A DNA stretch of 64,000 nucleotides, taken from the NCBI GenBank assembly GCA_964407105.1, contig CAYOUG010000001.1:164273-228272 (forward strand). The letters run 5' to 3'. Both the position numbers and the translations under genes were made by a program. This document shows, in pieces, positions 1 through 25,505 of this stretch; positions within the stretch are counted from its first letter, which is position 1, and each line of letters starts with the position of its first letter. This DNA comes from an uncultured Candidatus Saccharibacteria bacterium (lineage in GTDB: Bacteria > Patescibacteriota > Minisyncoccia > Phycocordibacterales > CALRHW01). The notes under the pieces were generated by a model. It did not search any database and was not told the origin of the DNA. It saw only the letters and a list, made by a program, of their open reading frames with translations.

Positions 1-90
1 ACCAATTTTGGAAACATTGATGCTGGTGTAGAGGAGTTACAGTAAGGTAAGAGCGGTAAGAAAATCAAACAAAAAACATGTCTTTCGTAG

Positions 91-153
91 GGGGTCTCGA
101 GCGCGACGGCGCGAGAGCTTCAGGATTTTTTAAGCTTCAAAAAATCCGTACCC
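91..153 (+). repeat. family A GC-rich palindromic mini-element, copy A1 (63-bp core GGGGTCTCGAGCGCGACGGCGCGAGAGCTTCAGGATTTTTTAAGCTTCAAAAAATCCGTACCC)
   Basis: Near-identical 63-bp cores at 6125, 19496 and 25397 (reverse); lies in the loop of a local AT-rich inverted repeat (71-86 / 158-176); flanked by CGTAG direct repeats. Confidence 0.85.
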
Positions 154-217
154 GTAGAAAGACATGTTTTTTGTTTGGTTGAAAAGAGAAAATACCGAAA
201 ATGCATATTGAAAAATG

Positions 218-276
218 ACTCGCACAGGCACGACGGCGCCGAGCGGAGCAGAAAAACCAGCAGGCTTTTACGCATG
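218..276 (-). repeat. family B GC-rich element, copy B1 (reverse orientation)
   Basis: Core shares CGACGGCGCCGAGCGGAGCAG... with reverse complements of 16758-16831 and 61234-61306; sits between a 30-bp near-perfect inverted repeat (185-217 / 277-306). Confidence 0.7.
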
Positions 277-374
277 CATTTTTCAATATACATTTTCGGT
301 ATTTTCTATTTTATAAACCTTGCAAAATAGCCACATTTCCCCTACACTAAAAACCTATTTCATTTAAAAAACAT

Positions 375-1475
375 ATGGAAAAGGAAGATACAAAAAAGCA
401 TTATACAAACATAAAAATCTCTAAACTCGACAACTCAGAAATAGAAATTGAGGGAGAAATTCTTGCAGAGTATTTTGATGAACATCACAAAAACGCCCTA
501 AAAAAACTTCTAGCCAACGCAGAGGTGCCGGGTTTTCGAAAAGGCAATGCTCCAGAGAATGTTGTTCTTCAACACTACAGCGACGCCAAATTACTTGAGG
601 GCGCGGCGCAAGACGCACTCGACTCGCAATATTGGAATATTTTATCCGACAATTCCATTAAAGCTCTAGGAGAACCATCCGTAACAATCACCAAACTAGC
701 AAAAGGTAATCCTCTTGGATTTAAAATTAAAACGGCAGTGTTTCCAGAATTTACTTTGCCTGATTATAAAAAAATTGCGAAGAAAATTGCTGAAGAAAAA
801 GAAGAAGCGATAGAAGTCGAACAAAAAGAAGTCGACGAAATTTTAAAACAACTTCAACATTCAAAATTACACGAAAAAGAAGGTCGTGTTGAGCATAACC
901 ATTCATCAGACGATCATTTGGCCGACACAGAGCACAAGCATGATGAAAAGGACTTCCCTCCTCTAGATGACACTTTCGCACAATCTGTTGCTCCAGAATT
1001 TAAAACTCTCGCTGAACTTACAGAAAAAATCCGCGAAAACATGCTCGCTGAAAAAAAATATAAAGCAAAAGAAAAAAAACGTTTAAGTATTCTTGAAGCA
1101 CTTGTAGAAAAAACAGAAATTTCTGTTCCTGAAATTTTACTAGAAAGTGAACTTCAGAAAATGATCGCGCAATTTAAAGATGATGTTGCAAAAGCTGGCC
1201 TTACATACGAAACATACTTAGAACACGCCAAAAAAACTGAAGCGGATATTCGAAAAGAATGGCGAGAAAATGCAATGAAACGAGCAAAAACCCAACTCAT
1301 TTTAGGAAAAATTGGACGTGAAGAAAAAATTGAACTTGATGAAGCTGAAGTTACAAGAGAACTTGAACACATTATGTCTCATCACAAAGATGCAGATCGT
1401 TTTCGCGCACGAATGTTTATTGAAAACATGATGCAAAACGAAAAAGTACTAGAGTTTTTGGAAGGAGTAAAGTAA
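375..1475 (+). CDS. tig: trigger factor (ribosome-associated chaperone)
   Basis: N-terminal ribosome-binding motif PGFRKGNAP, typical TF length and domain order; has a His/Asp/Glu-rich low-complexity insertion. Confidence 0.85.
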   Translation: MEKEDTKKHYTNIKISKLDNSEIEIEGEILAEYFDEHHKNALKKLLANAEVPGFRKGNAPENVVLQHYSDAKLLEGAAQDALDSQYWNILSDNSIKALGEPSVTITKLAKGNPLGFKIKTAVFPEFTLPDYKKIAKKIAEEKEEAIEVEQKEVDEILKQLQHSKLHEKEGRVEHNHSSDDHLADTEHKHDEKDFPPLDDTFAQSVAPEFKTLAELTEKIRENMLAEKKYKAKEKKRLSILEALVEKTEISVPEILLESELQKMIAQFKDDVAKAGLTYETYLEHAKKTEADIRKEWRENAMKRAKTQLILGKIGREEKIELDEAEVTRELEHIMSHHKDADRFRARMFIENMMQNEKVLEFLEGVK

Positions 1476-1518
1476 GCAATACAAAAACATGCGTTTCTGA
1501 GCATCACCTAAATGAAAA

Positions 1519-1548
1519 GCCCCTAGTCGCGTGTGCGCGGCTAGGGGC
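1519..1548. terminator. GC-rich hairpin between convergent tig and the GC-rich ORF
   Basis: GCCCCTAGTCGCG-tgtg-CGCGGCTAGGGGC stem-loop; no clean U-tract. Confidence 0.4.
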
Positions 1549-1592
1549 TTGAGACCAAGTGATAGTGCTGTAGTGAAGCTAGAGCACGGAAC

Positions 1593-2297
1593 TCAGTCAG
1601 GATCGACTCGCGAGAGAAGGAATGCGAAGCTGTACAAACCGTGACCCGCTCGATTCCAATTATCCTCTGGCCAGACAACATCAAGTGTCTTTGCAGAATC
1701 TATAAAGCGTCTTTCAGAGACCGTTGGAGAATGATCGGCCTGGCGAATTCCGAGCCGAATCTGATTTTGATCCTCCACCTCGTGCATCATGGTCAGATTC
1801 CAAAGACCCATCTCCCTAACCTGGTTGTCCGTGAAAGCTTCACGAAGGAGGAAACATGCTTCTAAAGGAAGTGGCCGCAGACAACGTCTCGAAGCATCGG
1901 CGACGACCATATCGGTCGTCAAAAGCTGTCTGCTAGATGCAAGCCCACGCCCATCTATGATGGCGACAGTGTACTCCACACCGCTCGTCACTTCAAACTT
2001 GGACGATCGCACTGATTCAGACCACTGACTCCTCATGCCATTCCTCAACTCCATGCCCAGATGACGCTCCCAATCATTTTTCGTCATACCAGTCGAGGTG
2101 AGAGTAGTATAGACAACGTTACCGTTGCGACGCCACCTAACCTCCGGCTTCGTGATACGCCACTCGCTGGAGTTCACCAGCCGAATAGCTTCGTTGGGAT
2201 CTTCTGCGCCCGTCTGCCTCATAATGTTCTTCAACAAAGCATTGAGCTTCATGATCTCTGGGAGAACATTAACAATAACAAGTGGATTCTTTTCCAT
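1593..2297 (-). CDS. hypothetical protein, encoded in a GC-rich islet
   Basis: Longest ORF in a visibly GC-rich block (about 1560-2340) with GC-rich codon usage unlike its neighbours; no recognisable motif. Confidence 0.5.
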   Translation of the reverse strand: MEKNPLVIVNVLPEIMKLNALLKNIMRQTGAEDPNEAIRLVNSSEWRITKPEVRWRRNGNVVYTTLTSTGMTKNDWERHLGMELRNGMRSQWSESVRSSKFEVTSGVEYTVAIIDGRGLASSRQLLTTDMVVADASRRCLRPLPLEACFLLREAFTDNQVREMGLWNLTMMHEVEDQNQIRLGIRQADHSPTVSERRFIDSAKTLDVVWPEDNWNRAGHGLYSFAFLLSRVDPD

Positions 2298-2508
2298 GTC
2301 TGTCCTTCTGGGCTAAATCGCCCAAAGACTTTTTTCCTCTAATCCGAGGAAGGAGCACAGACCATTATGGTCATAGCCAGTAGGTGCCGATTCATTTCGG
2401 CCTCTTTTGGCTATGACCATCTCGCAATTTCTCAAAGAACGTTATGGAAATATTATACCTTTATTTATATATAACGTCAAGTACTTTGTACATCATATTA
2501 CACCCTTG

Positions 2509-3207
2509 TTAAGCCATCAAAAAGAGCGCACTAGACACAACAGCCGCCGTCTCTGCCCGTAAAATATATGTACCCAGCGTGCGAACCTCTGCGCTTCGTG
2601 TAGAAAAAAGTGCAAGTTCTGCATCACTCCACCCACCCTCAGGGCCAACAAAAAGACTCACGCTACCACTACCGTGTTTCTCTGTATCTTGTAGTGAAGT
2701 ACCAGACGGATCAAAAACAAAAACATGCGTTTCTGCGCATAGTGTAAGAGCATCTTCAGGCGACAAAGCCTTATGTATGTAAGGCAACGTTCCCCTTCCA
2801 GACTGTTCGCTTGCCTCAATTACAATTTTTTCTAAACGTTCAACATTTAAATCTTTTTTTTCTGAGCGCTCCGCGAGTATTGGAACAATGTGTGACACGC
2901 CAAGCTCGGTAGCTTTTTGCGCGACCCATTCAAAATTATCTTTTTTAATGAGCGCAACACACAGCCACACTTCGCGCGGTGGCGCTGGCACTTCTTTTGC
3001 ACCATCCACCGTCACCTCCGCTTTTTCTTTAGACAGCATTTCAATGATGCACTCATATTCTTTTCCTGATCCATCAAAAAGCACCACTTTGTTGCCCGCA
3101 CCAAGACGAAAAACTTTTTTCCATTGATGCAGTGTGTCGGGGTTGGTAATAGAAAGAGTAGAACGACTTCCTATTGTTTCATGTATAAAAAATCTATGTA
3201 ATCGCAT
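2509..3207 (-). CDS. rsmE: 16S rRNA (uracil1498-N3)-methyltransferase RsmE family
   Basis: C-terminal GPEGGWS and LRAETA motifs typical of RsmE; length 232 aa. Confidence 0.8.
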   Translation of the reverse strand: MRLHRFFIHETIGSRSTLSITNPDTLHQWKKVFRLGAGNKVVLFDGSGKEYECIIEMLSKEKAEVTVDGAKEVPAPPREVWLCVALIKKDNFEWVAQKATELGVSHIVPILAERSEKKDLNVERLEKIVIEASEQSGRGTLPYIHKALSPEDALTLCAETHVFVFDPSGTSLQDTEKHGSGSVSLFVGPEGGWSDAELALFSTRSAEVRTLGTYILRAETAAVVSSALFLMA

Positions 3208-3323
3208 GTCATTAGTGTAGACACGGCTGAGAAAAAAGCAATAGTTTCAGCGCGCAACATACCCGTTGCGTCGCGCGCCTCTTTGATATACTATTATTGA
3301 ACTTTATTATTAACCACAAAAAC

Positions 3324-3893
3324 ATGTTAATCCCAACAGTGATTGAAAAAACAAATTTTGGCGAGCGAGCATATGATATCTACTCTCGCCTACTTAAAGA
3401 GCGCATCATTTTTCTTGGTGGTCCAATTGATGATTACATGGCAAATATTGTGATTGCCCAACTTCTTTTTCTTGAATCAGAAGATCCAAAAAAGGATATT
3501 TCCTTGTATATCAATTCTCCAGGAGGATCTGTGACAGCAACTCTTGCAATGCTTGATACAATGAATCATGTAAAACCAGACGTTTCTACTGTGTGTGTTG
3601 GTATTGCAGCTTCGGGCGCAGCAATTCTTCTTGCTGGTGGAGCAAAAGGAAAACGACTTCTCCTTCCAAACGCTGAGGTGATGATTCATCAGCCGTGGGG
3701 TGGGGTGCAAGGACAAGCGACAGATATTGAAATCACCGCAAAACAAATTCTTAAAACCCGAGCAAAACTTAATAAAATTCTTGCGGACGCAACAGGTCAA
3801 TCACTTACACAAATAGAAAAAGATGTAGAACGTGATTATTTTATGGATGCCTCTGAAGCAAAAAAGTACGGGATTATTGATAAGGTGTTGTAA
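3324..3893 (+). CDS. clpP: ATP-dependent Clp protease proteolytic subunit
   Basis: [46 protein letters not shown]; start placed at the internal ATG 3324, the six-frame ORF begins at 3297. Confidence 0.9.
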
Positions 3894-3911
3894 AGATTAA
3901 AAAATCATATG

Positions 3912-3946
3912 AAAAAAGCGACCATCAAAAGATGGTCGCTTTTTTC
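3912..3946 (+). terminator. intrinsic terminator after clpP
   Basis: AGCGACCATC-aaaa-GATGGTCGCT hairpin followed by a T-run. Confidence 0.7.
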
Positions 3947-4183
3947 AATACTTTTTACAAACCTCGACAAAATGCCCTTTTTCTTATACTATGAAATTGT
4001 TCATTTTATTTGAAATTTTTTAATTTAGATATTGTCGCTTTAAATTTCTTGACCGTATGACTCTAGCCATTATTTCTCTACTTCCCTTCTTTCCGTTACA
4101 CAAGAAAACATAGTCGGATAAGCCTGCTATAGCGAGGCACTTCTATTCGTGCAGGAAGACAAAGCGTCGGTATTCGCACACAT

Positions 4184-5713
4184 ATGTCAATCAAAACAAT
4201 TCTGCTCTTTGCGGGGTTTATGACAATTTTGGGTGTTGCGTTCGGATATTTTTTACGTCTCATAATTTCTCTAGGTAGAAAAGGTTCCATGGAGCTTGAT
4301 ATCAAGCAAATGGAGCTTAAAAGCAGAGAACAAGCACAAAAAATAATTACTGAGGCAGAGGAAAAAGCCGAACACACCCTAAAAGAAGCCCGTATTGAAG
4401 TAAAAGAAAAAGAAGAAAAACTGAAAAAAGCTGAGGATCGCATCATTAAAAAAGAAGAGTTACTAGACAAACGACAAATAGATATCGATTCAGAAGTAGA
4501 ATATATAAAAAATCGAATTGAGGAAGTAAAATCTATAAAAGAGCGCGCTGATGGATTACTTTTGGAACGTGAACAAAATCTACAAAAAGTAGCTAATTTA
4601 AGCGTGGAAGCAGCAAAAGAAGAAGTTTTTGCGATTGTAGAAAAAAAACACGAGGAAGACATACTTGTACGTATGCAAAAACTTGAAATGCTCGGTGCAG
4701 AAAAGCTCGACCGTCGAGCAAAAGATATTTTAGCTACTTCTATTCAGCGTCTTGCTACGTCGGTGTCTTCTGAAATGCTTACTACTACAGTACAAATCCC
4801 AAGCGATGAAGTAAAAGGAAAAATTATTGGAAAAGAGGGTCGAAATATTAAGGCATTTGAGCGCGCGACCGGCGTAGAAATAATCGTCGACGACACGCCG
4901 GGGGCTATTACCATCTCGTCGTTTGATCCTGTGCGACGACAGGTCGCGCGCGTCGCACTCGAAGCACTCATTGCAGACGGCCGTATTCAGCCTGCAAAAA
5001 TCGAAGAAATGGTTGAGAAATCAAAAAACGATATCAATAAAATTATAAAAGATCAGGGTGAGGCGGCTGCATATGAGTGTGGGGTACTAAATCTAGATCC
5101 ACGCATCATCGCCATCCTTGGACGTCTACATTTTCGTACAAGTTACGGTCAAAATGTGCTTCAGCACTCTATAGAAATGACGCACATAGCAGGAATGCTT
5201 GCTGAAGAACTTGGCGCAAATGTGGCAGTAGCAAAAGCCGGCGCACTTCTTCACGACATCGGCAAAGCGCTCGATCACGAAGTAGCGGGTTCTCATGTAG
5301 AAATCGGACGCAGAATTTTGCAAAAATTTGGTGCTAGTGAAGAAATCGTTAAAGCAATGCAAGCACATCACGAAGAATACCCTTATGAAACAATCGAATC
5401 TATTATCGTACAGGTAGCTGATGCTATTTCAGGTGGTCGTCCGGGTGCACGACGTGACACAGTAGAAAATTATCTCAAACGTCTTGGTGATCTTGAAGCA
5501 ATCGCAACAGGTTTTAAGGGTGTAGAAAAATCATATGCCCTTCAAGCCGGAAGAGAAATTCGTGTGTTTGTTTTTCCTCAACAAGTGACAGAACTTGAAG
5601 CAAAAAATATGGCCCGAGATATCGCTCTAAAAATCGAAAATGATTTAAAATATCCAGGTGAAATTAAAGTAAATATTATTCGCGAATCTCGTTTCATAGA
5701 ATTCGCTAGATAA
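4184..5713 (+). CDS. rny: ribonuclease Y
   Basis: N-terminal TM helix, coiled coil, KH domain (GKEGRNIKAFERATGVEIIVDD) and HD domain (LLHDIGKA); contains a GC-rich codon patch at 4861-4951. Confidence 0.9.
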   Translation: MSIKTILLFAGFMTILGVAFGYFLRLIISLGRKGSMELDIKQMELKSREQAQKIITEAEEKAEHTLKEARIEVKEKEEKLKKAEDRIIKKEELLDKRQIDIDSEVEYIKNRIEEVKSIKERADGLLLEREQNLQKVANLSVEAAKEEVFAIVEKKHEEDILVRMQKLEMLGAEKLDRRAKDILATSIQRLATSVSSEMLTTTVQIPSDEVKGKIIGKEGRNIKAFERATGVEIIVDDTPGAITISSFDPVRRQVARVALEALIADGRIQPAKIEEMVEKSKNDINKIIKDQGEAAAYECGVLNLDPRIIAILGRLHFRTSYGQNVLQHSIEMTHIAGMLAEELGANVAVAKAGALLHDIGKALDHEVAGSHVEIGRRILQKFGASEEIVKAMQAHHEEYPYETIESIIVQVADAISGGRPGARRDTVENYLKRLGDLEAIATGFKGVEKSYALQAGREIRVFVFPQQVTELEAKNMARDIALKIENDLKYPGEIKVNIIRESRFIEFAR

Positions 5714-5817
5714 AAACACAAAAACAACTCTGTGTATAGTAGCTTGCGCTAAAAAAGCCTTATTATATAATGACAGAGTAATCAAAAAACGATTATTAAT
5801 AAGCCAATAGCAACACT

Positions 5818-6090
5818 ATGAACAAACAAGCAATTGCAGAAGCAGTGCATGTAAAATTGGGTGGAACAAAAGCTCAAGCAGAAGAATTGGTAGATATGAT
5901 AATTGATTCTATCGTTTCGACACTAAAAAAAGGAGACGAGGTTTCAATTGCTGGTCTTGGTATTTTTTCTACAAAAACACGAGCCGCACGACAAGCTCGA
6001 AATCCTCGCACAGGAGAATCTATTCAGGTTCCTGCGATGCGAGTTCCAAAGTTTCGCGCAGCTAAAGCACTCAAGGACGCGGTGAAATAG
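5818..6090 (+). CDS. hup: DNA-binding protein HU
   Basis: 90 aa; GxGxF..RxxRxGRNPxTGE..I HU signature. Confidence 0.9.
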   Translation: MNKQAIAEAVHVKLGGTKAQAEELVDMIIDSIVSTLKKGDEVSIAGLGIFSTKTRAARQARNPRTGESIQVPAMRVPKFRAAKALKDAVK

Positions 6091-6124
6091 TGTTTCGAGT
6101 CTAAAAAGAAAACAGCTTTCGTAG

Positions 6125-6187
6125 GGGGTCTCGAGCGCGACGGCGCGAGAGCTTCAGGAATTTTTAAGCTTCAAAAATTCCGTACCC
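6125..6187 (+). repeat. family A element copy A2, in the loop of the hup terminator hairpin
   Basis: 63-bp core flanked by CGTAG direct repeats and a 24-bp local inverted repeat (6097-6120 / 6188-6215); internal hairpin shows compensatory change GGAATTTTT/AAAAATTCC versus GGATTTTTT/AAAAAATCC in the other copies. Confidence 0.85.
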
Positions 6188-6344
6188 GTAGAAAGCTGTT
6201 TTCTTTTTTAGACTCTATTACTTTATACTAATCAACAAAAAACGGCCTCCTCGCTAACCCGCTCGAAGGCTGTTTTTTTATTGTTTTTTAATTGCTTTTA
6301 TTATTTAAATCATTAGTATAATCCTAGAGAAAGGAGTGTTTGCA

Positions 6345-6620
6345 ATGCCAAAAAACACTCAAGACACTGGCGTGAAATGTGTTATTCCAAATTGTGGTGG
6401 ATTTATTGTTGCAGAAATCGAACAAATAAAAACCGTGCCACTTGACCAAATACCATTTGGATCAAGTGGAATGAACTGCTTTGAAGTTGTAATTCACTTT
6501 CACTGCAGCAACCCACATTGCCAAGTAGCGTACCACTGCCCACCAGGAAAAGAAACACACGACAAAGATTGGTGGACTAAAGAAATAATGAAAAGGAGAC
6601 GAACACAAAACTTAGACTAG
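6345..6620 (+). CDS. small Cys/His-rich hypothetical protein (possible zinc-binding)
   Basis: AGGAG 8 nt upstream of the ATG at 6345; CxxxxC and HFHCSNPHC..HCPPG spacing. Confidence 0.5.
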   Translation: MPKNTQDTGVKCVIPNCGGFIVAEIEQIKTVPLDQIPFGSSGMNCFEVVIHFHCSNPHCQVAYHCPPGKETHDKDWWTKEIMKRRRTQNLD

Positions 6621-6663
6621 TGTTTTGTAAGTCATTGCAAAACACAATCCCCGCCCCGTAATA

Positions 6664-6695
6664 GGGGTGGTTTTTTATTCTAAAAAAACCACCCC
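6664..6695. terminator. bidirectional terminator hairpin
   Basis: GGGGTGGTTTTTT-attc-TAAAAAAACCACCCC between convergent genes. Confidence 0.5.
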
Positions 6696-6698
6696 ACC

Positions 6699-7403
6699 CT
6701 ACTCACTAAAAAATCCTGTTCCAATATTTTTTACAACAACAGAAGATGGTAAATCACCAGACTGATCAAGACGAAGTGTAAAAATATATGTACCCGGCTG
6801 AACAATATCAAACCCCATTATTTGTTTTTTAGATTCTGTTCCATAAAAACGTTCGTCCATATAACCCAAATCTTTTCCATCAAGAAATGCCGTAAATATT
6901 CCCTGCGCAACACTGTCACTCGTAAAATCCAAATCAAAATATAAATAATTGGAAGGTTTTGTGGTTGTTACGGCAAAAGAAACCCAGTTTGATCGTGCTT
7001 GAGAGGTAGATTTTATTGCAACAACACTACCAGACTGAACGGTTGCAAAAGAAAGATTATTTGATGTGTACTGAGAATTAAAAACATCCACCAATGGACC
7101 ATCAACCATTGTTTGTTGAATAGCTACAGCGGTAGCCTGAGTTTGATTTGAAACTGTAGCGGCAACATTTTTGGCAGAAGCAACGGCATTTGCTAGTGGA
7201 ATATTTTCATTTTGAGGTTTTTTTGTATTTAAATCATCCCAGCTAAGCTCATTTTTGTATGCCACAAATTCTTTACGCAAAAACAAAGATTTTATAAAAC
7301 TAATTAGTGTTTTGTCATTAATATAATTCCACCACGCTGCATGTGTTACGAGTGGAATAAAAAAAAGGCCACTCAATAAAATATAAAAAGTTATTTTCTT
7401 CAC
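6699..7403 (-). CDS. secreted or membrane-anchored hypothetical protein
   Basis: The six-frame ORF extends to 7568 but overlaps the tRNA-Gly; trimmed to a GTG at 7403 giving an N-terminal MKKITFYILLSGLFFIPLV signal/anchor; start uncertain. Confidence 0.5.
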   Translation of the reverse strand: MKKITFYILLSGLFFIPLVTHAAWWNYINDKTLISFIKSLFLRKEFVAYKNELSWDDLNTKKPQNENIPLANAVASAKNVAATVSNQTQATAVAIQQTMVDGPLVDVFNSQYTSNNLSFATVQSGSVVAIKSTSQARSNWVSFAVTTTKPSNYLYFDLDFTSDSVAQGIFTAFLDGKDLGYMDERFYGTESKKQIMGFDIVQPGTYIFTLRLDQSGDLPSSVVVKNIGTGFFSE

Positions 7404-7450
7404 AAATATATTATAGCGTAAACAAAACCAACCAGCGAGAAATATTTCTG

Positions 7451-7521
7451 TGCGGGATGGGAGAATCGAACTCCCAACCTCGGTTTGGAAAACCGATATT
7501 ATACCATTTAACCAATCCCGC
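7451..7521 (-). tRNA. tRNA-Gly (anticodon UCC)
   Basis: Cloverleaf folded by hand: acceptor GCGGGAT/ATCCCGC, anticodon loop TTTCCAA, T-loop GTTCGATTC. Confidence 0.85.
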
Positions 7522-7606
7522 TTGAGCGCCCGAGCACTATGTATTTCAAACGATCTCCAAACGAACAAGGGTTATACTAGCAAAAAAGTATATGCTAATC
7601 AATCTT

Positions 7607-7921: not shown

Positions 7922-7924
7922 ATG

Positions 7925-8548: not shown

Positions 8549-8561
8549 ACCGTTAAAATAT

Positions 8562-15821: not shown

Positions 15822-15827
15822 CAAGTA

Positions 15828-16712: not shown

Positions 16713-16757
16713 AGGCTGGCGTTTGAACATCGTAAGAAAAACCCCCTAAAATGTGTT

Positions 16758-16831
16758 TCGAAAACCACGCATAAATCGCTGCTGCGATTTTGCTACGCTC
16801 GGCGCCGTTGCGCCTGCGCGATGCTTTTCTC
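16758..16831 (+). repeat. family B GC-rich element, copy B2
   Basis: Core ATCGCTGCTGCGATTTTGCT..CGCTCGGCGCCGTTGCGCCTGCGCGA shared with 61234-61306; embedded between a 20-bp inverted repeat (16737-16757 / 16832-16851). Confidence 0.75.
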
Positions 16832-16890
16832 AACATATTTTAGGGGGTTTTCTTGCATTTATATGGCATTTATGCTATTCTCATCACACA

Positions 16891-17163: not shown

Positions 17164-17181
17164 GTCAACTAATCAGTTTTC

Positions 17182-17208: not shown

Positions 17209-17361
17209 GTTTGATATACTAAAGTAGCGCGGGTCGATATTTCGCGCCGATCTTTGAAAAATTATTTTCATACGTATTTCATAAGCATTCGCCGACAACG
17301 GCACATTTTAAAACTTAAAACCTTTTAAAATATTTAAAAAAATAAAACACCATTTAAAAAA

Positions 17362-17979: not shown

Positions 17980-17990
17980 AAAATATATCA

Positions 17991-18021
17991 AAAACACACC
18001 CAAGACATCAGGTGTGTTTTT
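17991..18021 (+). terminator. intrinsic terminator
   Basis: AAAAACACACC-caagacatca-GGTGTGTTTTT. Confidence 0.6.
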
Positions 18022-18029
18022 GATATATA

Positions 18030-19025
18030 ATGGAAAAAACAATATATCGTATGGAACCAGATTTACTCAAACCAATAGATACAAAAACAACCACCAACGC
18101 TTCTACACCTGTACAAAAAAGTGATATTCTAAAACCTTTGCGCACATACGAACGCGACATTGCTGATTTGGTACGAGCACATCAAGTGTCAACAGTACAA
18201 ATAAATATTGCCGAACAAAAAAAAGTAGAAAAACTTCCTGAACCAGAAAAAAAACAAATACAAAAAGAGCGACAAGAAGAACGTAAAGAGTTACTTCAAA
18301 AAACAGAAGTGGTGACACGCAATTCCATTTTTTCTATACTCAGCATAATACTCATCATTATTGGCGCGTCAGTTTTTGTTTTATTTTTCATCAACAAACC
18401 AAACAGCATCACAACGAATACAACAAACCCAGAATTAATAACATCTATTCCGAGTGATTTGGAATACGGCATTGTACTTGATATTTCAACACAACCACAA
18501 CTCGCAAAACAATTTTCAGATTTAGTACAATCAACAAAAGATAATTCTTTAACTCATGTAAAATTTTTGGTGGGCACTATTAATAATGTAAAAGAGGCGA
18601 GCCCAGAAACATTTTTTAGAGCAACAGCACCAAATATTCCAGCCTCACTTACACGCGCACTTAACACAACAATGTTTGCTGGAATTTATGCAAACAATGA
18701 TAAACATCCGTTTTTTATTATAAGTGTTGATACTTTTGATAAAGCTTTTGAGGGAATGCTGGAGTGGGAAAAAAACATGTATCAAGATTTTGGAATATTT
18801 GTGCGCACAAACAAAACAAATTCTTCTGTCGCTTTTGGCACACCACCTTTTGTATTTGAAGATGAAATTATACAAAACAAAGATACTCGCATATTAAAAA
18901 ATAATCAGGGTGAAGTGGTAATGATTTACTCATTCATTGATGAACAAACGCTTTTTATTGTTGACAATGAAGAAACTTTTAAAGAAATTCTAAATCGATT
19001 TTCTTCAGCAAAATTTGTGCGATAA
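18030..19025 (+). CDS. single-pass membrane hypothetical protein
   Basis: Charged N-terminal region, one TM helix (IFSILSIILIIIGASVFVLFFI), roughly 200-aa extracytoplasmic domain. Confidence 0.5.
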   Translation: MEKTIYRMEPDLLKPIDTKTTTNASTPVQKSDILKPLRTYERDIADLVRAHQVSTVQINIAEQKKVEKLPEPEKKQIQKERQEERKELLQKTEVVTRNSIFSILSIILIIIGASVFVLFFINKPNSITTNTTNPELITSIPSDLEYGIVLDISTQPQLAKQFSDLVQSTKDNSLTHVKFLVGTINNVKEASPETFFRATAPNIPASLTRALNTTMFAGIYANNDKHPFFIISVDTFDKAFEGMLEWEKNMYQDFGIFVRTNKTNSSVAFGTPPFVFEDEIIQNKDTRILKNNQGEVVMIYSFIDEQTLFIVDNEETFKEILNRFSSAKFVR

Positions 19026-19081
19026 TTTTTTCTCTAGCGTATTTGTGTGTGGGTTGCGAGGGTTATGTATTCTGCTATGAT

Positions 19082-19453
19082 ATGGAACATATGACAGAAA
19101 TAAATACAACACATTTCAAAGAAAAACTTGAAACAGAATTAGCAAAAGTGAAAGCTGAACTTAAAACGGTTGGTATAGAAGATCCAGCAAGTCATGATTG
19201 GCAAGCATCACCACCAAGCACAGATGACACTTCTTCAGCAGATGAAAATGAGATGGCTGATCGAATAGAAGAGTATGAAGATAACGCTGGAATTTTAAAA
19301 GAACTAGAAATTCAATATAACGAAATTGTAGTAGCACTTAAAAAAATTGAAGCTGGTACTTATGGTATTTGTGAAATAGACGGTGGACAAATAGAGCACG
19401 AAAGACTTGAGGCAAATCCAGGAGCAACAACGTGCATGAAACACATGAAGTAG
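19082..19453 (+). CDS. DksA/TraR-family protein with a degenerate (C-D-C-H) zinc finger
   Basis: Coiled-coil N-terminus; C-terminal ICEIDGGQIEHERLEANPGATTCMKH aligns to DksA CxxC..RLEAxP..CxxC with Cys-to-Asp and Cys-to-His replacements. Confidence 0.55.
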   Translation: MEHMTEINTTHFKEKLETELAKVKAELKTVGIEDPASHDWQASPPSTDDTSSADENEMADRIEEYEDNAGILKELEIQYNEIVVALKKIEAGTYGICEIDGGQIEHERLEANPGATTCMKHMK

Positions 19454-19495
19454 GTTGCTGGTGTTTTGAAACAAAAAGAAAAAGTGGTGTTTAGG

Positions 19496-19558
19496 GGGGT
19501 CTCGAGCGCGACGGCGCGAGAGCTTCAGGATTTTTTAAGCTTCAAAAAATCCGTACCC
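19496..19558 (+). repeat. family A element copy A3
   Basis: 63-bp core identical to A1; in the loop of a local inverted repeat (GTGGTGTTTAGG / CCTAAACACCAC) just after the DksA-like gene. Confidence 0.85.
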
Positions 19559-19690
19559 CTAAACACCACTTTTTCTTTTTGTTTCACACTCACGTTATCC
19601 ACAGTGATATCGTTTTCTTTAACATTTCTTTAGGGAAACTTTATCTCCGCTTTGATGTAATACAGACATTAGCAACAGTTTCACTGTTAT

Positions 19691-21238
19691 ATGGGTTTTT
19701 CAAAAATTCACAGCGCACAAGTTTCATTACTTCAACCACACATCATAGATATAGAGGTCGATATATCAAACGGATTACATTCATTTACTATCGTTGGTTT
19801 GCCAAGCAAAGCTGTAGAAGAATCCAAAGATCGTGTTTCCGCTGCTATTAAAAATTCAGGGCTCACATCGCCCAAACAAAAAAATCAAAAAGTTGTTATA
19901 TCACTTGCACCAGCAGATTTAAAAAAGGACGGGCCGGTTTTTGATCTGCCTATAGCACTCGCTTATCTTTTGGCATCTGGAGATGTGTCTTTTGATCCTG
20001 CGCAAAAAATATTTTTAGGTGAACTTTCACTCGACGGGGAACTGCGTTCGATGCGCGGTGTTTTACCACTTGTGCAAGAAGCAGAACGTTGTGGATTTAC
20101 AAAAATTTATGTACCGAAAGAAAACGCAAAAGAAGCGGCGATTATAAACAACGTCACAGTATTTGGTGTAAATTCTTTTTCTGATTTACTCGCACACCTT
20201 GATCCTAAATATGTGTGTGAGAAAAAAATAACAACATTAACACCGCAACCCAAAACACAAATTCAACATACACAAAAAATAAATTCTCAAACATTTGCAG
20301 ATATACGTGGACAAGATGGAGCGAAGCGCGGACTTGAAATTGCGGCGGCAGGAGGACACAGTATTGCAATGAGTGGACCACCTGGTACCGGCAAAACAAT
20401 GTTGGCCAACGCATTTTGCGAACTTCTACCACCACTTTCATTTGATGAAATTCTTGAAGTTACTTCTATACATTCGGTGGCTGGTAAACTCGAAAATACA
20501 CTCATAACACACCCACCTTTTCGAGCGCCACATCACAGTGCTTCTCATAGCGCACTTGTGGGTGGAGGAGGAATTCCAAAACCCGGAGAAATAACTCTCG
20601 CACACCGTGGTGTTTTATTTCTTGATGAATTTCCAGAATTCGATCGACAAGTTATAGATTCGTTACGTCAACCACTTGAAAATAAAAAAATTAATATCTC
20701 CAGAGCAAAAGGTTCAGCCCTTTTTCCTGCAGATTTTATTTTGATTGCTGCAATGAATCCGTGCCCATGTGGATTTCGTGGTGTGAAAGGCCGAGAATGT
20801 GTATGCTCGGCTGTAAATATAAATTCATATCGTCGCAAAATTTCTGGACCAATTATTGATCGTATTGATTTGTGGGTAAATGTAGAAAAAATTGAATATA
20901 AAAACTTCGGTGAAAAAAACACACAAGAAAACACAAATATTATTAAAGAAAAAATTGAAAATGCGCGAAAAATACAGAAAAAAAGATTCGAAAAACATCA
21001 AATTAATATCAAAACAAATGCAGAACTCGGGAGTGAGAAATTAATAAGTATCACGCCACTATCTTCTGACGTACAACAGCTTTTAAACACATCAGCAAAA
21101 AAACTTGATCTTTCTGCGCGCGCATATCATCGAGTTTGGAAAGTAGCGCGCACCATTGCCGATCTCGCAAACCACGAAAATATAGAAACACCCGACATGC
21201 TCGAAGCCTTGCAATATAGATCGAAAAATATTTTCTAA
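19691..21238 (+). CDS. comM: YifB/ComM Mg-chelatase-family AAA+ ATPase
   Basis: N-terminal Lon-like domain; Walker A GPPGTGKTM; Walker B/arginine-finger region FLDEFPEF; C-terminal helical domain. Confidence 0.85.
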   Translation: MGFSKIHSAQVSLLQPHIIDIEVDISNGLHSFTIVGLPSKAVEESKDRVSAAIKNSGLTSPKQKNQKVVISLAPADLKKDGPVFDLPIALAYLLASGDVSFDPAQKIFLGELSLDGELRSMRGVLPLVQEAERCGFTKIYVPKENAKEAAIINNVTVFGVNSFSDLLAHLDPKYVCEKKITTLTPQPKTQIQHTQKINSQTFADIRGQDGAKRGLEIAAAGGHSIAMSGPPGTGKTMLANAFCELLPPLSFDEILEVTSIHSVAGKLENTLITHPPFRAPHHSASHSALVGGGGIPKPGEITLAHRGVLFLDEFPEFDRQVIDSLRQPLENKKINISRAKGSALFPADFILIAAMNPCPCGFRGVKGRECVCSAVNINSYRRKISGPIIDRIDLWVNVEKIEYKNFGEKNTQENTNIIKEKIENARKIQKKRFEKHQINIKTNAELGSEKLISITPLSSDVQQLLNTSAKKLDLSARAYHRVWKVARTIADLANHENIETPDMLEALQYRSKNIF

Positions 21239-22314
21239 AATGGATTCTTTGCTCCTCTAATTTCAAAATGTACGTGTGGACCAGTAGATTTTCCGCTTGA
21301 TCCAACATTTCCAATAACCTGACCCTGAACAACTCTTGTGCCCACAGAAACAATAATATTAGACATGTGCGCATAAAGTGTTTGTGTGCCATTATCATGA
21401 GCGATTACAACATACATTCCATAACCTCCATTCCATCCAGAACTCTTACTGATAATCACGGTGCCTCCAGCAGAAGCTAGAAGTGGTGTACCTATTGGAG
21501 CGCCAATATCAATTCCGTTGTATCCATGAATTCCTTGTGTTTTTGTTCCACCAACAACGGGTCGAATATAATATCCTGCTGGTACAGCACGTATTGGGAG
21601 GGGATTTTTGGGTGCACCAAAAGATTTTGATGGTACGGTTCTTGAATAAACACTGTCTTTCGAAGAGGGTTGTGTGGAAACTGGAGTCAATTCTCCGTCC
21701 GGTACAATAACAACATCTCCCACAGCAAGTTTTGCGCCAATAGATAAGTCATTAAATTGACGAATTTCTTCTGCATTACTTTTATACTTTTTTGCAATAG
21801 TCTCAACGGTATCTCCAGATTTTACTATGTGTTGTACGCCAGTAATAGGGAGAATAACAAGGGTTTGACCCTCTGAAATTGTTCCTCCAGAAAGATTGTT
21901 ACCCCAAAGAATGGTGTTTACAGAAACATTAAACATTTTAGCGATCTGTGAAAGAGAATCGCCTTTTCGCACAACATACAAACTAATTTGTCCAGCAGAA
22001 AGACTTGTGTCTTCACCAATACTTCCAACAGCATTAAGTTCTGGCATAATAGCGTTTTCATCCACGATGGTAACCTCGCCACCACCCACAGACATACTGA
22101 TATTTAGTGGTGCTTGAAGCAGGGGAATGTTCTGAGAATTGTGATCATTGACAGAAAATTCTTCTGTTGTCCCTCCAAACATCGCTGAAACAACATTAAA
22201 AAAACCAGCGTGAGCTACTGGAACATTGAGAAAAGAGAAAAAAGCTAAAAAAAGCGTTGTCATCGACAAACCCCTAATAACTGTTTTTATGGCTCCAAAT
22301 CTAGCTTTTTTCAC
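21235..22314 (-). CDS. LysM-domain M23 peptidoglycan endopeptidase
   Basis: Signal peptide; two LysM repeats; C-terminal HxxxD..HxH M23 motifs (GIDIGAPIGTP..HVHFEIR). Confidence 0.85.
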   Translation of the reverse strand: MKKARFGAIKTVIRGLSMTTLFLAFFSFLNVPVAHAGFFNVVSAMFGGTTEEFSVNDHNSQNIPLLQAPLNISMSVGGGEVTIVDENAIMPELNAVGSIGEDTSLSAGQISLYVVRKGDSLSQIAKMFNVSVNTILWGNNLSGGTISEGQTLVILPITGVQHIVKSGDTVETIAKKYKSNAEEIRQFNDLSIGAKLAVGDVVIVPDGELTPVSTQPSSKDSVYSRTVPSKSFGAPKNPLPIRAVPAGYYIRPVVGGTKTQGIHGYNGIDIGAPIGTPLLASAGGTVIISKSSGWNGGYGMYVVIAHDNGTQTLYAHMSNIIVSVGTRVVQGQVIGNVGSSGKSTGPHVHFEIRGAKNPF

Positions 22315-22537
22315 AGCGCCCCCAACACAGCAAGATGTGGATTTATTGAACTGAGTTAAAATAAGCCTAAGATTAATGATAATTTCGTCCTGAATCGGTA
22401 AATGTGGCTTTGTTGAGCCACATTATAATATCGGGCGATCTTTCTGGGTATCTTTTTATTATACAAAGTGAACATCTCTCGTCAATCATTTCACGCACCT
22501 CTGTGGATATTGTGCTCTGTGATATAGTTTATTTCTA

Positions 22538-24511
22538 ATGTCACAAAATACGGAAAAAAATTATCTTGACGCACTAAATCCAGCACAAAAAGAAGCGGTG
22601 ATCGCAACAGAAGGTCCACTACTCATTGTAGCGGGGGCAGGGGCGGGAAAAACAAAAACGATTACACATCGAATTCTTCATCTCATTAAAAAAGGTGTGC
22701 CTCCACAAGAAATTTTGGCAATTACTTTTACAAACAAAGCGGCCAGAGAAATGAAAGATCGTGTTCTACATTTTGTAACCAACGATAAAGAAACACGCGA
22801 CACAATCACTCGTTTTGGAATGCCTTTTGTTAGCACATTTCATTCACTTGGCGTGTTTATTTTAAAAGAACACGGTCATCACCTTGGACTTTCAAAATAT
22901 TTCACGATTTGCGACAAAAATGATAGTAAAAGAATTATTAAAGAAGCAATGACTGAATCTGGTTATGATCCAAAACAATTTGATCCAGCAAAAGTAATGG
23001 GGGCTATTTCTAGAGCAAAAGGAGAGGGAATGACTGTAAGTGTTTATCAAGAAAAAGTTTCAAATCAGTATTTTGAAAGTGTTGTGCTTGCTATTTGGAA
23101 ACGTTACGAAACAATTCTTTCAAAAGAGAGCGCCCTTGATTTTGATGATCTTCTTTTAAAAACCTTGGTGCTTTTAGAAAAATTTGAAAGTGTACGCACC
23201 GTATGTCAAAATCGATGGAAATATATCCATATTGATGAATACCAAGACACGAACAAAGTACAAGACAGAATAGCAGAAATTATTTCTTCAACACATCGCA
23301 ATATTTGTGTAGTAGGAGACACAGACCAAAACATCTATAGCTGGCGTGGAGCAAATATTCAAAACATGCTCACTTTTGAAAAAAAATATCCTGATGTAAA
23401 AATTGTTCGTCTAGAAGAAAATTATCGATCAAGCAAAACCATTTTGGGTGTTGCAAACAACGTTATCATAAAAAACAAATATCGCATTGAGAAAAATCTT
23501 TTTACCAACAACCCAGTAGGAGAAAAAATAGGTCTTATTGATAATTATGATGAAAACCAAGAAGCATATACTGTGGCGGGAAAAATTCGAGATCTCATTA
23601 CTAGTGGTGTGTCTCCAGAAGAAATTGCAGTACTTTATCGTGCCAACTTTCAATCGCGCATTCTAGAAGAAGCCTGCGTGTCACTTTCAGTACCTTACCA
23701 AATGATTGGTGTGCGTTTTTTTGAAAGAAAAGAAATAAAAGATACTCTTTCATATATTCGTGCATCACTAAACCCAAACAGTGTTTCAGACATTAAACGG
23801 ATCATAAACGTACCAGCGAGAGGAATTGGAAAAGTAACTATCGACAAAGTATTAGAGAAAAAAGAAAACGAGCTATCTGCTGGAGCACAAATAAAAGTAA
23901 CCAATTTCCGAAATATTTTGTCACACATAAAAGAAGAATCAAAAAAATTAACACCATCCTTACTCATTAAATATACAATCAAAATTTCCGGCATCGAAGC
24001 TGAGTTAGAAAAAGGTAAAAGTGAAGAAGATACCGAACGGCTTGAAAATATAAAAGAACTTGTAACACTAGCACTTTCTTATGACGGATACGGCGCAGAA
24101 GAGGGAATAGACAGACTTCTCACTGACGTAGCGCTTGCAACAGATGAAGAGGGTGATGAAAAAAAAGAGCCCGCAATAAGACTTATGACAGTACACGCCG
24201 CAAAGGGTCTTGAATTTGATTATGTGTTTATCACCGGACTTGAAGAAAATCTTTTTCCACACCAACGTAGAGAAGCTGGCGGAAAAGCAGAAGACAATGA
24301 AGAAGAGCGTAGGCTTTTTTATGTAGCTGTCACTCGTGCACGTAAAAAACTTTTTCTTTCGTATGCACAAACGCGCACTATTTTCGGCTCCAGACAAGTC
24401 AACGTCCCCTCAGAATTTCTTTTTGATGTAGAAGAAGATCAGGTCGACAGAGAATCTGGTACTACCGCAGACATGCCTAGCCGAAAACCACTCTTTAAGA
24501 TAGATTTCTAG
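22538..24511 (+). CDS. pcrA: UvrD/PcrA-family DNA helicase
   Basis: GAGAGKT Walker A, TFTNKAAREM motif Ia, DEYQDTN motif II and the remaining SF1 helicase motifs. Confidence 0.9.
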   Translation: MSQNTEKNYLDALNPAQKEAVIATEGPLLIVAGAGAGKTKTITHRILHLIKKGVPPQEILAITFTNKAAREMKDRVLHFVTNDKETRDTITRFGMPFVSTFHSLGVFILKEHGHHLGLSKYFTICDKNDSKRIIKEAMTESGYDPKQFDPAKVMGAISRAKGEGMTVSVYQEKVSNQYFESVVLAIWKRYETILSKESALDFDDLLLKTLVLLEKFESVRTVCQNRWKYIHIDEYQDTNKVQDRIAEIISSTHRNICVVGDTDQNIYSWRGANIQNMLTFEKKYPDVKIVRLEENYRSSKTILGVANNVIIKNKYRIEKNLFTNNPVGEKIGLIDNYDENQEAYTVAGKIRDLITSGVSPEEIAVLYRANFQSRILEEACVSLSVPYQMIGVRFFERKEIKDTLSYIRASLNPNSVSDIKRIINVPARGIGKVTIDKVLEKKENELSAGAQIKVTNFRNILSHIKEESKKLTPSLLIKYTIKISGIEAELEKGKSEEDTERLENIKELVTLALSYDGYGAEEGIDRLLTDVALATDEEGDEKKEPAIRLMTVHAAKGLEFDYVFITGLEENLFPHQRREAGGKAEDNEEERRLFYVAVTRARKKLFLSYAQTRTIFGSRQVNVPSEFLFDVEEDQVDRESGTTADMPSRKPLFKIDF

Positions 24512-24512
24512 T

Positions 24513-25370
24513 ATGAAAGCTAAAAAATCACTCGGACAAAATTTTTTAAAATCAAAACACGCACTACGTGTGATTGTTGAATCTGCAAATATTGCGCCCA
24601 CTGATACCGTGCTTGAAATAGGGCCGGGAAAGGGGGCGCTTACCGCCGGACTTTTAGAAAAAGCGGGACACGTCATAGCGATAGAAAAAGACGATGAACT
24701 TGTGCCTTTTTTGCAAGAAATGTTTGCCGCAGATATTGCGACAAAAAAACTTACACTTATTCATGGAGATATTATGGAAATGACGATTGAGGAAATTTTT
24801 GCACAAGCACGAAATGCTGGCGCAAGCGATGTAACGGCAGAATCATACAAACTCGTTGCAAATATTCCATACTATATTACAGGTGCACTCATTCGAATGT
24901 TTTTGGAGACGGCGCGCCAGCCACGCCTCATGGTGCTCATGCTCCAAAAAGAGGTGGCGCGCCGCATCACCGCAACCGACAAAAAAGAAAGCTTACTCTC
25001 ACTTTCAGTAAAAGCATACGGCACACCTAAATATATAGAGACCGTCAAAGCAATGTTTTTTTCACCACGCCCAAACGTAGACTCCGCAATTTTACTTATT
25101 AAAGATATTTCAAAAGCATTTTTCAAACGGGACACAGATACAAAAGAAACATCTGGCATCCAACCAACCACACACGCCGAAGAAACTTTTTTCAAAATTA
25201 TCAAAGCCGGCTTTGCACACAAAAGAAAACTTTTGGTGCGCAATCTTGAAAGCGATTTTTCAAAAGAAAAAATTTCTACAACTTTTGCTTCGTGCAACCT
25301 TTCTCTAAAGGCGCGTCCAGAAGATCTTTCTCTTGATCAGTGGAAGTGTGTAACAACACAAATAAAATAA
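24513..25370 (+). CDS. rsmA: 16S rRNA (adenine1518/1519-N6)-dimethyltransferase
   Basis: SLGQNFL start and GPGKGALT SAM motif. Confidence 0.9.
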   Translation: MKAKKSLGQNFLKSKHALRVIVESANIAPTDTVLEIGPGKGALTAGLLEKAGHVIAIEKDDELVPFLQEMFAADIATKKLTLIHGDIMEMTIEEIFAQARNAGASDVTAESYKLVANIPYYITGALIRMFLETARQPRLMVLMLQKEVARRITATDKKESLLSLSVKAYGTPKYIETVKAMFFSPRPNVDSAILLIKDISKAFFKRDTDTKETSGIQPTTHAEETFFKIIKAGFAHKRKLLVRNLESDFSKEKISTTFASCNLSLKARPEDLSLDQWKCVTTQIK

Positions 25371-25396
25371 AACAAAAAACTTTTATATCTTTCTTC

Positions 25397-25459
25397 GGGT
25401 ACGGATTTTTTGAAGCTTAAAAAATCCTGAAGCTCTCGCACCGTCGCGCTCGAGACCCC
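25397..25459 (-). repeat. family A element copy A4 (reverse orientation)
   Basis: Reverse complement is a 63-bp core with one mismatch to A1; within a local inverted repeat (AAAACTTTTATATCTTTC / GAAAGATATAAAAGTTTT) between convergent rsmA and the 25506 gene. Confidence 0.85.
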
Positions 25460-25505
25460 CTACGAAAGATATAAAAGTTTTTTATTTTATTTTTTTGTTT
25501 AAACT

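Follow-up and report, generated by a model that had tools for sequence, protein, structure and literature searches.

What places the same 63-nucleotide (nt) sequence, nearly unchanged, at the tips of four hairpins whose stems are unrelated? The question is posed by a 64,000-nt stretch of contig CAYOUG010000001.1 (positions 164,273–228,272), referred to here in its entirety as 'the window', and by a repeat within it that we term 'family A'. A sequence-only reading of this DNA had noticed the repeat and had likened it to the miniature transposable elements with inverted repeats (MITEs) or the repetitive extragenic palindromes (REPs) of other bacteria or, alternatively, to a structured RNA module of 3' untranslated regions. 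The likeness to MITEs or REPs has held: the sequence is repeated and structured, and its core is a unit apart from the locus-specific hairpin that carries it. The answer we favour, and to which we would give a probability of about one half, is that family A is a REP- or MITE-like hairpin cap, dependent on structure, that moves or is spread by gene conversion, and that the stems beneath it are probably bidirectional terminators or 3'-end stabilisers.

The four tips and their fold

All four cores reported by the sequence-only reading are present. A1 (91–153), A2 (6125–6187) and A3 (19496–19558) lie on the + strand, and A4 (25397–25459) on the − strand. They vary at three positions only, and are 95–100% identical to one another; a 35-nt probe taken from the core matches the window four times with at most one mismatch, and not once in 100 shuffles. 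Each core stands at the apex of its own inverted repeat, as had also been claimed, with arms of 24–39 nt that form A/T-rich hairpins of 24–35 bp. Each arm sequence is confined, within the window, to its own hairpin, and the idea that the arms are guide-like sequences with a target elsewhere was dropped for lack of a third copy there. Folded whole, the hairpins have predicted free energies of −54 to −71 kcal/mol, and z-scores of −7.7 to −11.3.

The A1 hairpin (63–180, +; minimum free energy (MFE) −57.2, z = −8.45) is built from 24-bp A/T-rich arms at 63–86 and 157–180, and lies after a + strand gene that ends at 45 and before tig and another hairpin, B1, of a second family. The A2 hairpin (6097–6215, +; arms 6097–6120/6191–6215; z = −7.67) stands 3' of hup (5818–6090) and is followed by a terminator-like hairpin with an apex of a third family, C. 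The A3 hairpin (19467–19586, +; z = −11.25) has perfect 31-bp arms (19467–19497/19556–19586) and lies between a dksA-like gene that ends at 19453 and yifB, at 19691. The A4 hairpin (25361–25496, −; arms 25361–25399/25458–25496; z = −9.81) lies between two convergent genes, rsmA (ending at 25370) and a gene for a small secreted protein (25506–25859, −); its left arm overlaps the final codons of rsmA.

The core is predicted to fold into a three-way junction. A closing stem, P1 (GGG/CCC), leads into two hairpins, H1 and H2, and an unpaired GUA precedes the 3' strand of P1. H1 (CUC-GA-GCGC-GACG-GCGC-GA-GAG) has a 2 × 2 tandem G·A internal loop beneath a 4-bp stem that is capped by a GACG tetraloop, and H2 (GGAUUUUUU-AAGCUUC-AAAAAAUCC) is AU-rich. 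In A1, P1 occupies 91–93/151–153, H1 96–117 (CTC-GA-GCGC-GACG-GCGC-GA-GAG), H2 123–147 (GGATTTTTT-AAGCTTC-AAAAAATCC) and the junction GTA 148–150. Two of the differences between cores form a pair in A2 (GGAATTTTT/AAAAATTCC) that leaves the H2 stem intact, a compensatory change already remarked on in the sequence-only reading; the third, a C-to-T change in A4, whose GACG strand is the − strand, turns a G–C pair of H1 into G·U. The same fold is predicted to be equally feasible in single-stranded DNA (ssDNA), and on either strand. The H2 loop, AAGCUUC in all A copies (132–138 in A1), contains the self-complementary AAGCUU, which could form a kissing dimer. AGCTTCA occurs twice in the A1 tip (117–123 and 133–139). 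The loop sequence is not kept in the relatives described below, whose loops are AGCA or AGUA.

In A1, A2 and A4, identity reaches 8–9 nt past the core on each side (CTTTCGTAG... / ...G(T/A)AGAAAG), and these flanks pair with each other as a 5-bp stem, CUUUC/GAAAG, and a symmetric 3 × 3 internal loop, GUA/GUA. The pentanucleotide CGTAG, found to the left of A1, A2 and A4 and to the right of A1 and A2, had been taken for a target-site duplication. It is embedded in this longer shared stretch, which recurs at three unrelated loci, and so belongs to the element's own proximal stem. A3 has no CGTAG; its stem passes directly into GGGG/CCCC. The putative mobile unit of A1 thus spans 82–161 (+), CTTTC-GTA-[tip]-GTA-GAAAG, a layout with the same flanks in A1, A2 and A4 and with the CGTAG repeats inside it.

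Three independent Logan assemblies (DRR783867, SRR12487045 and DRR274965), with flanks 95–100% identical to the window, carry hup, then the left arm, then the opening 21 nt of the A2 core, and all three break off at that point, as is expected of a multi-copy palindromic repeat in de Bruijn assembly. One Logan contig, L010, runs from inside A1 to inside A2, and the Logan contigs L006–L010 from these three runs all start or stop within an A or B element; the repeats fragment short-read assemblies of this organism. The contig breaks are the only observation in keeping with an artefact of assembly, vector or chimera. The same junction recurs in three assemblies made from different runs, the viral-contig search described below gave no match, and diverged copies with compensatory changes are present in five other metagenome-assembled genomes (MAGs) or metagenomes. 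We consider the probability of an artefact negligible. In L006 (95% identical), synteny with the window is lost upstream of window position 3961, just past a terminator hairpin.

Relatives, covariation and the apparent exchange of tips

Genome and metagenome collections were scanned for H1 by exact pattern (22–23 nt). Three true loci were found outside the window, two in genomes (L001 and L002) and one in a metagenome (L004); two further metagenome matches, L003 and L005, were discarded as GC-rich chance matches. In a viral collection, the 22-mer found no match, and a 16-mer gave at least 120 chance matches in GC-rich coding DNA, none with the architecture of the element. The tip of L001 (39% GC) is 95–98% identical to those of the window, on a different stem that runs, without CGTAG, directly into GGGG/CCCC, and L001 has no other DNA in common with the window. 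L002 (57% GC) has two copies within 8 kb and L004 (59% GC) has one. Look-ups anchored on proteins then yielded L139, which is the L002 contig (21.8 kb, with three copies, c1 to c3), and two syntenic relatives of it, L135 and L137, with LepA 93% and 89% identical. The nearest relative of L001, L140/L141 (metK 88% identical in nucleotides), has no copy and no synteny at the L001 site; a comparison of MetK proteins could not place L001 relative to the window, where no orthologue was identifiable. The MAGs of L001 and L002 are titled 'uncultured Candidatus Saccharibacteria', whereas the labels Parcubacteria, Kaiserbacteria or Paceibacterota are carried by their LepA and MetK relatives and by those of the window's YifB; the names given to the MAGs are probably imprecise.

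A covariance model, R1, was built from eight members and later rebuilt as R2. R1 matches the core-type copies of L001, L002/L139, L004, L135 and L137 at E < 1e-10; in the window it gives A1 90.8 bits (E = 9e-22) and A3 95.9 bits. The alignment comprises 11 core-type members from five Patescibacteria genomes of 38–59% GC and, having been fitted to the model, leans towards the structure; an alignment made with MAFFT alone agreed with it. Changes on both sides occur in 14 of the 22 modelled pairs, and compensatory changes occur in all three helices. Paired cells amount to 89.7% against 76% in column-shuffled alignments, none of 500 of which reaches the observed value, and against 24–60% when partners are slid. 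Every cell of H1 is paired (100%), its upper stem varying among GCGC/GCGC, GCUC/GAGC and GCAC/GUGC. The tandem GA/GA and the GUA junction are nearly invariant (GUG in one copy), and the loop is GACG in 10 of the 11 and GGCG in the other. H2 is AU-rich even in genomes of 57–59% GC, with loops of the AGCA or AGUA type. The structural constraint proposed from the A2 change alone, for which a covariance model had been suggested as the check, is thereby borne out family-wide.

All 15 members found, 11 core-type and four of the B type, cap hairpins of 19–35 bp, including GC-rich stems that lack a U-tract. A second conserved tandem G·A motif lies at the stem's base in the GC-rich relatives (5' ..AGCGAGU.. 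stem ..CGAGCU.. 3'; L139 9845–9965 and 12345–12470, L135 4748–4870, L137 9828–9950), so that base motif and tip are conserved there and the stem between them varies; no equivalent was seen around the window copies. Rfam 15, applied to the window at its gathering thresholds, passes only tRNAs, and with E up to 10 over 40–330 it finds nothing credible over the tip.

The sequence-only reading had proposed comparing orthologous sites in relatives that lack the insert, and such sites exist. In L011 and L012, the nearest relatives with synteny to the window, the order rpsO-NYN-x-dksA-yifB-M23-pcrA-rsmA-small protein is preserved, and some 39 kb of syntenic DNA contain no copy, the dksA–yifB and rsmA sites included. 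The dksA gene is followed by a plain short terminator in L012 and by none in L011; the spacer between rsmA and the convergent small gene measures 7–12 nt in both, against 135 nt in the window. L137, similarly, lacks counterparts to two of L139's three copies, and its matching spacers are 58 nt and about 5 nt. The tRNA-Gly(CCC) gene beside one of these, c3 (L139 12496–12567), is inverted relative to its counterparts in L137 (12349–12421) and L135 (7264–7337), which suggests a local rearrangement associated with the element.

The third L139 copy, c2, lies between murJ and lepA, and is present at the same site in L139, L135 and L137, antisense to both genes. The tips of these three orthologous copies are only 60–68% identical to one another, and resemble tips at other loci more closely: that of L135 is 82% identical to L139 c3, and that of L137 79% identical to L139 c1. 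The 24 nt beyond the inner unit on each side, in contrast, follow orthology (c2–L135 77%, c2–L137 69–71%; c1 against any other 48–54%), all of these being values from short segments and few sequences. L139 and L135 begin to diverge at mirror-symmetric points of the two arms (...GGCCGC | inner | GCGGCC...). A proximal stem of about 8–10 bp goes with the tip, as seen in UUUUGGAG/CUCCAAAA of c1 and UUUUGAG/CUCAAAAA of L137, or in CCUGAAAA of c3 and CCCGAAAA of L135, and the relatives thus carry a U-rich/A-rich equivalent of the proximal stem of A1, A2 and A4. Since outer stem and tip have different affinities, the tips appear to have been exchanged between resident hairpins. We conclude with moderate confidence, from these sequence comparisons, that some 80 nt, made up of the proximal stem and the tip, were inserted as a unit at the apex of a resident hairpin or replaced the apex already there; either event would also account for near-identical tips on unrelated stems in the window.

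Strand, rival explanations and known families

In the MFE folds of the 15 members, the strand that reads GACG in the H1 loop forms 31 G·U pairs and has six isolated A·C mismatches, and in 11 of the 15 it folds more stably than its complement. Three A·C mismatches on the mRNA-sense strand of the L137 stem, for example, become G·U on the GACG strand. In these models, then, the GACG strand appears to be the one that folds. Its orientation to the flanking genes is random. The sequence-only reading held that every copy is in the sense orientation to an abutting gene, and this is true of the window's four A copies (uninformatively for A4, which lies between convergent genes), but not of the family: where the neighbours are co-directional, the GACG strand runs sense to them at five copies (A1, A2, A3, B1 and L004) and antisense at five (B2, L001, the murJ–lepA copy, L139 c3 and the B-like copy of L137). 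Another three have convergent neighbours, and none of the 13 copies placed lies between divergent genes. Random orientation argues that conservation of the tip serves the element rather than the mRNA. A function inside the neighbouring mRNA is unlikely, and the reading as a 3' untranslated region module is weakened, the antisense set including the murJ–lepA copy kept in three species; a separately transcribed RNA and an ssDNA intermediate that folds are both possible. No bias in replication strand is seen in the window, orientations being mixed within one replichore, the left, where A1–A3 are on the + strand and A4 and B2 on the −.

The stems had been likened to the terminator hairpins of the adjacent genes, and in the window they do resemble local terminators in layout. 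Ordinary terminator-like hairpins in the window have near-perfect arms of 17–20 bp, and consist of an A-tract, a short GC-richer stem, a loop of 4–10 nt and a T-tract. Hairpins that bear the element have the same A-tract/T-tract ends, but their arms are longer and poorer in G–C pairs, and the tracts themselves are paired. They are not simply the terminators of their neighbours: stems of 19–35 bp are found throughout the family, the GC-rich relatives have no U-tract, and two intergenic regions of the window hold hairpins in tandem pairs (A1 + B1, and A2 + C).

The favoured reading would run as follows. Family A may be one subfamily of a Patescibacteria-wide class of small, non-coding, structure-dependent repeats. 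The conserved unit, of about 80 nt, would consist of a proximal stem (U-rich/A-rich plus G/C) closed by the three-way junction of 63–70 nt with its H1, H2 and GUA. It would ride on the apexes of longer, locus-specific hairpins, and be copied or exchanged between them through insertion at an apex, replacement of an apex or gene conversion; one variant would recently have reached at least four hairpins of the window genome, either by spreading or by homogenisation. The bases GA/GA, GACG and GUA, conserved but unpaired, would most simply form the recognition surface for the protein that moves it, acting on one folded strand, the GACG strand. A long stem works in either direction and so, by analogy with REPs, one with A-tract and T-tract ends, as in this AT-rich genome, probably serves the host as a bidirectional terminator or 3'-end stabiliser.

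Several points weigh against this. In all three species the murJ–lepA copies have perfect stems and have lost none of the conserved unpaired bases; this resembles purifying selection acting in place, and a host function would explain it no less well. No close strain showed an empty site that would tell insertion from conversion or inverted duplication. Only five true loci came from the exact-pattern scans of public collections, so that copy number and spread are poorly known. The separation of outer stems by orthology is not clean, because the non-orthologous pairs c2–c3 and L135–c3 also reach 71–73% by way of the shared base motif. The G·U bias was counted on MFE folds of copies that are not independent, and two members, B1 and L139 c1, favour the opposite strand. 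Finally, some 50 open reading frames (ORFs) of the window were scanned, and among them there is no transposase, HUH or RAYT enzyme, reverse transcriptase or other candidate mobiliser, nor any match to Y1_Tnp; the window has no insertion sequence (IS), and its sole recombinase, a Xer-type integrase, is syntenic in relatives that lack the element.

A bolder version of the favoured reading, which we put forward only tentatively, is that the element is an undescribed mobile non-coding module: a hairpin of about 80 nt, recognised by its shape (a three-way junction with box C/D-like tandem G·A pairs), that enters or replaces the apexes of other hairpins, terminators and older copies alike, and so would produce long, layered hairpins across genomes of the Candidate Phyla Radiation (CPR). 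Alternatively, the motif might be the binding site of a dedicated CPR protein, and represent a new, abundant class of RNA or ssDNA. The main rival, rather unlikely in our judgement, is that the element is instead a structured RNA that serves its host—a multi-copy small RNA, or a cis-acting module whose box C/D-like cap binds a protein or directs 3'-end formation or processing—with concerted evolution of paralogous RNA genes keeping the window's tips identical. The compensatory changes in three helices, the retention of GA/GA, GACG and GUA across very different GC contents and of the murJ–lepA copy with perfect pairing in three species, and the second tandem G·A at the stem base of the L139 group (GCGAG...CGAGC) would all suit such an RNA; an excess of G·U over A·C on one strand is typical of RNA, and variable helices between conserved motifs are normal in RNAs. 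Yet in half of the cases that are informative both neighbours are antisense to the GACG strand, promoter prediction gives no sigma-70-type site next to the three orthologous copies in antisense orientation, tips at one orthologous site come from different subfamilies, Rfam has no match and either strand could fold equally well as ssDNA. The density of elements, nine in 64 kb of the window and three in 22 kb of L139, is also far above that of known trans-acting RNAs.

We regard it as improbable that the long stems did not exist beforehand but were created by the insertion itself, by fold-back or template-switch copying of one flank in inverted form. This would explain why they are perfect, or nearly so, over 24–35 bp when ordinary terminators have 17–20 bp; why the rsmA and L139 c3 sites measure only 5–12 nt in relatives against some 110–135 nt; why single spacers hold two hairpins in tandem; and why stems so poor in G–C pairs, which would be weak terminators without their cap, are there at all. 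The murJ–lepA copy speaks for a palindrome that was there already: L139 and L135 share its outer stem, their inner stems and tips differ, and the breakpoints are mirror-symmetric. L012, moreover, has a plain terminator at the dksA site, and no empty site is available at close range. Less probable again is a site that acts as DNA and does not itself move, such as a cruciform, or a hairpin in ssDNA, bound by a nucleoid, replication, recombination or DNA-uptake factor. Orientation independent of transcription, a stable ssDNA fold, strictly intergenic location and conserved motifs would all fit. Against it stand the inconsistent orientation to the origin (dnaA/dnaN and the skew minimum, at about 38–42 kb) in the window, the patchy distribution and the syntenic L011 and L012, which do without the element; near-identical tips on unrelated stems would still require copying between loci. 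Hammerhead and other small ribozymes, tRNA-like structures, the apex of the signal recognition particle RNA, retron non-coding RNAs and ssoA origins were also considered, and were rejected: their defining motifs or contexts are absent by eye, and neither cmscan nor ARAGORN gave a hit.

The cap that we favour, mobile or gene-converting, appears to work like a REP or a mitochondrial GC cluster, but it belongs to no named family with which we compared it, as the sequence-only reading had suspected. MITEs of bacteria (e.g. Correia/CREE, ERIC/IRU, RUP, BOX and Rickettsia RPE) are likewise non-autonomous, about 60–150 bp long, patchily distributed and nearly identical within a genome, and form hairpins when transcribed. 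Family A differs in having no shared terminal inverted repeats beyond GGG/CCC (plus CTTTC/GAAAG in three copies), no matching IS in the window and no copy-specific target-site duplication, CGTAG being the same at three loci and missing at two; its target is apparently a hairpin tip rather than a short sequence. RPEs, in addition, insert in frame in genes, whereas the elements here are strictly intergenic. The palindrome-associated elements derived from IS200/IS605 (PATEs) were ruled out, for these need two similar subterminal hairpins and a fixed left target of 4–5 nt; H1 and H2 are unlike, and the left flanks have no common tetranucleotide. Existing hairpins do serve as targets for mobile DNA: IS1397 and ISKpn1 insert in the loops of REPs, and group II introns of class C go to terminators or to attC hairpins, at tip or foot. 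Those elements are 1–2 kb long and code for proteins or ribozymes, whereas what moves here would be a non-coding hairpin of about 80 nt.

The REPs of Proteobacteria, and the bacterial interspersed mosaic elements and REPINs that they form, are mobilised by REP-associated tyrosine transposases (RAYTs), and carry a GTAG or CGTC tag, an unpaired tetranucleotide at the end of the palindrome (PMC3733652). Like the elements here, REPs are short, GC-rich, palindromic intergenic repeats, present in many copies in either orientation between co-directional or convergent genes; they can combine into larger hairpins, and are regarded as selfish sequences that also act as terminators or mRNA stabilisers. 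GTAG adjoins three of the copies in the window, and CGTC is what the H1 loop spells on the opposite strand. REPs, however, are simple imperfect palindromes of 20–40 bp with the tag at the foot, unlike a 63–70-nt three-way junction with two internal hairpins. GTAG adjoins only A1, A2 and A4 and is absent from A3, L001, L004 and L135/L137/L139, and CGTC occurs solely as the complement of the H1 loop. In REPs the stems are conserved between copies; here the tip is conserved and the stems (19–35 bp) vary. The ORF scan of the 64-kb window, as noted, found no RAYT.

The GC42 clusters of yeast mitochondria and the double-hairpin elements (DHEs) of Allomyces are small, GC-rich hairpin or double-hairpin modules in AT-rich spacers, with AG target duplications (PMC4478555). 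They too vary in copy number, change in loops or by compensated changes in stems, convert or merge, and have no known transposase. They differ in being organellar, with another context and the AG duplication, and have not been reported to cap long, locus-specific hairpins; a TAG/AG flank adjoins only some copies here, and the resemblance is one of analogy, not membership. The tandem interspaced guide RNA (TIGR) arrays, found in Parcubacteria among others, are tandem stem-loops beside a Nop-domain tas gene, with two unpaired spacers of 8–12 nt flanked by box C/D (PMC12045711). They share with family A variable, consistently palindromic stems around conserved tandem G·A motifs of the box C/D type, as well as CPR hosts. 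Here, by contrast, we see dispersed singletons with no unpaired stretch longer than 5–7 nt, and the ORFs scanned in the window include no Nop-domain protein, nor any L7Ae protein.

Patescibacteria have very small genomes in which few mobile elements or regulatory RNAs are recognised. A structured repeat in about one of every six or seven intergenic regions shapes terminators and operon boundaries, as well as breaking short-read assemblies, and may point to a structure-specific DNA or RNA enzyme so far unrecognised. The exchange of tips between resident hairpins, if confirmed, would be an unusual mode of spread aimed at hairpin apexes. The covariance model offers a direct means to map the family.

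Families B and C and the gene setting

Counting four family-A copies, three of family B and two C-like apexes, the window holds nine apex elements. Family B has a tip made of a GGCGC-GACG-GCGCC hairpin with an A/GA internal loop and a second hairpin with an AGCA loop, and also caps long A/T-rich hairpins. B1 (182–312, +) is such a hairpin, with the cap GGCAC-GACG-GCGCC plus an AGCA-loop hairpin and with three A·C mismatches on the + strand; neither R1 nor R2 matches it, and it looks like a degenerate, distant relative. B2 (16738–16851, −) is antisense to the two + strand genes that flank it, one for an M14 peptidase and the other rpsO, and matches the models weakly (E = 0.46–0.74). B3 (61210–61330, −), between convergent amidase and Mur-ligase genes, scores 19.3 bits with R2 (E = 0.0077), and the B-like copy of L137 (19567–19637) reaches E = 0.0021; these two matches link family B to family A. 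Family C may be a minimal third family, or a minimal relative of the others. Its two apexes, both read by eye, share TCGCTAACCCGYTCGA, which on the − strand forms a small hairpin with the CGAG...CGAG tandem G·A motif of family A and a GGGTTA loop. One caps the terminator-like hairpin directly after A2 (6241–6277, −; CCTTC-GA-GC-GGGTTA-GC-GA-GGAGG), and the other a perfect, GC-richer stem of 24 bp (53095–53169, −). Between an unknown ORF and pilB (T2SSE), an inverted repeat of 28 bp (93% complementary) surrounds 114 nt of GC-richer sequence (49947–50116); it has no Rfam match, and by eye is unrelated to families A–C.

The window (38% GC) is part of a bacterial chromosome, as its dnaA, dnaN and ribosomal genes attest. 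It also carries tig, rny, hup, the dksA-like gene, yifB, pcrA, rsmA, polA, a type-IV-secretion-like cluster and six tRNA genes. The nearest homologues of its YifB are only about 70% identical, and those with names come from Patescibacteria of the Parcubacteria/Paceibacteria type. The cumulative GC-skew minimum and the lowest GC content (0.31) coincide at about 38–42 kb with dnaA (39818–41173) and dnaN (41403–42503), so the chromosomal replication origin probably lies within the window; yidC and rnpA/rpmH-like ORFs (−) stand beside dnaA and dnaN in the same region (about 38400–42600). Most genes between 13 and 38 kb are oriented towards this putative origin, i.e. head-on to replication. A run of + strand genes at 27040–38357 includes PrgI-like, VirB4/TraG-like ATPase and type-IV-secretion pilin-like proteins, together with many ORFs that have no Pfam match. 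Because the first genes after lnt are syntenic in L011 and L012, this run is probably, on sequence grounds, a conserved type-IV-secretion-like system of Parcubacteria rather than a mobile island.

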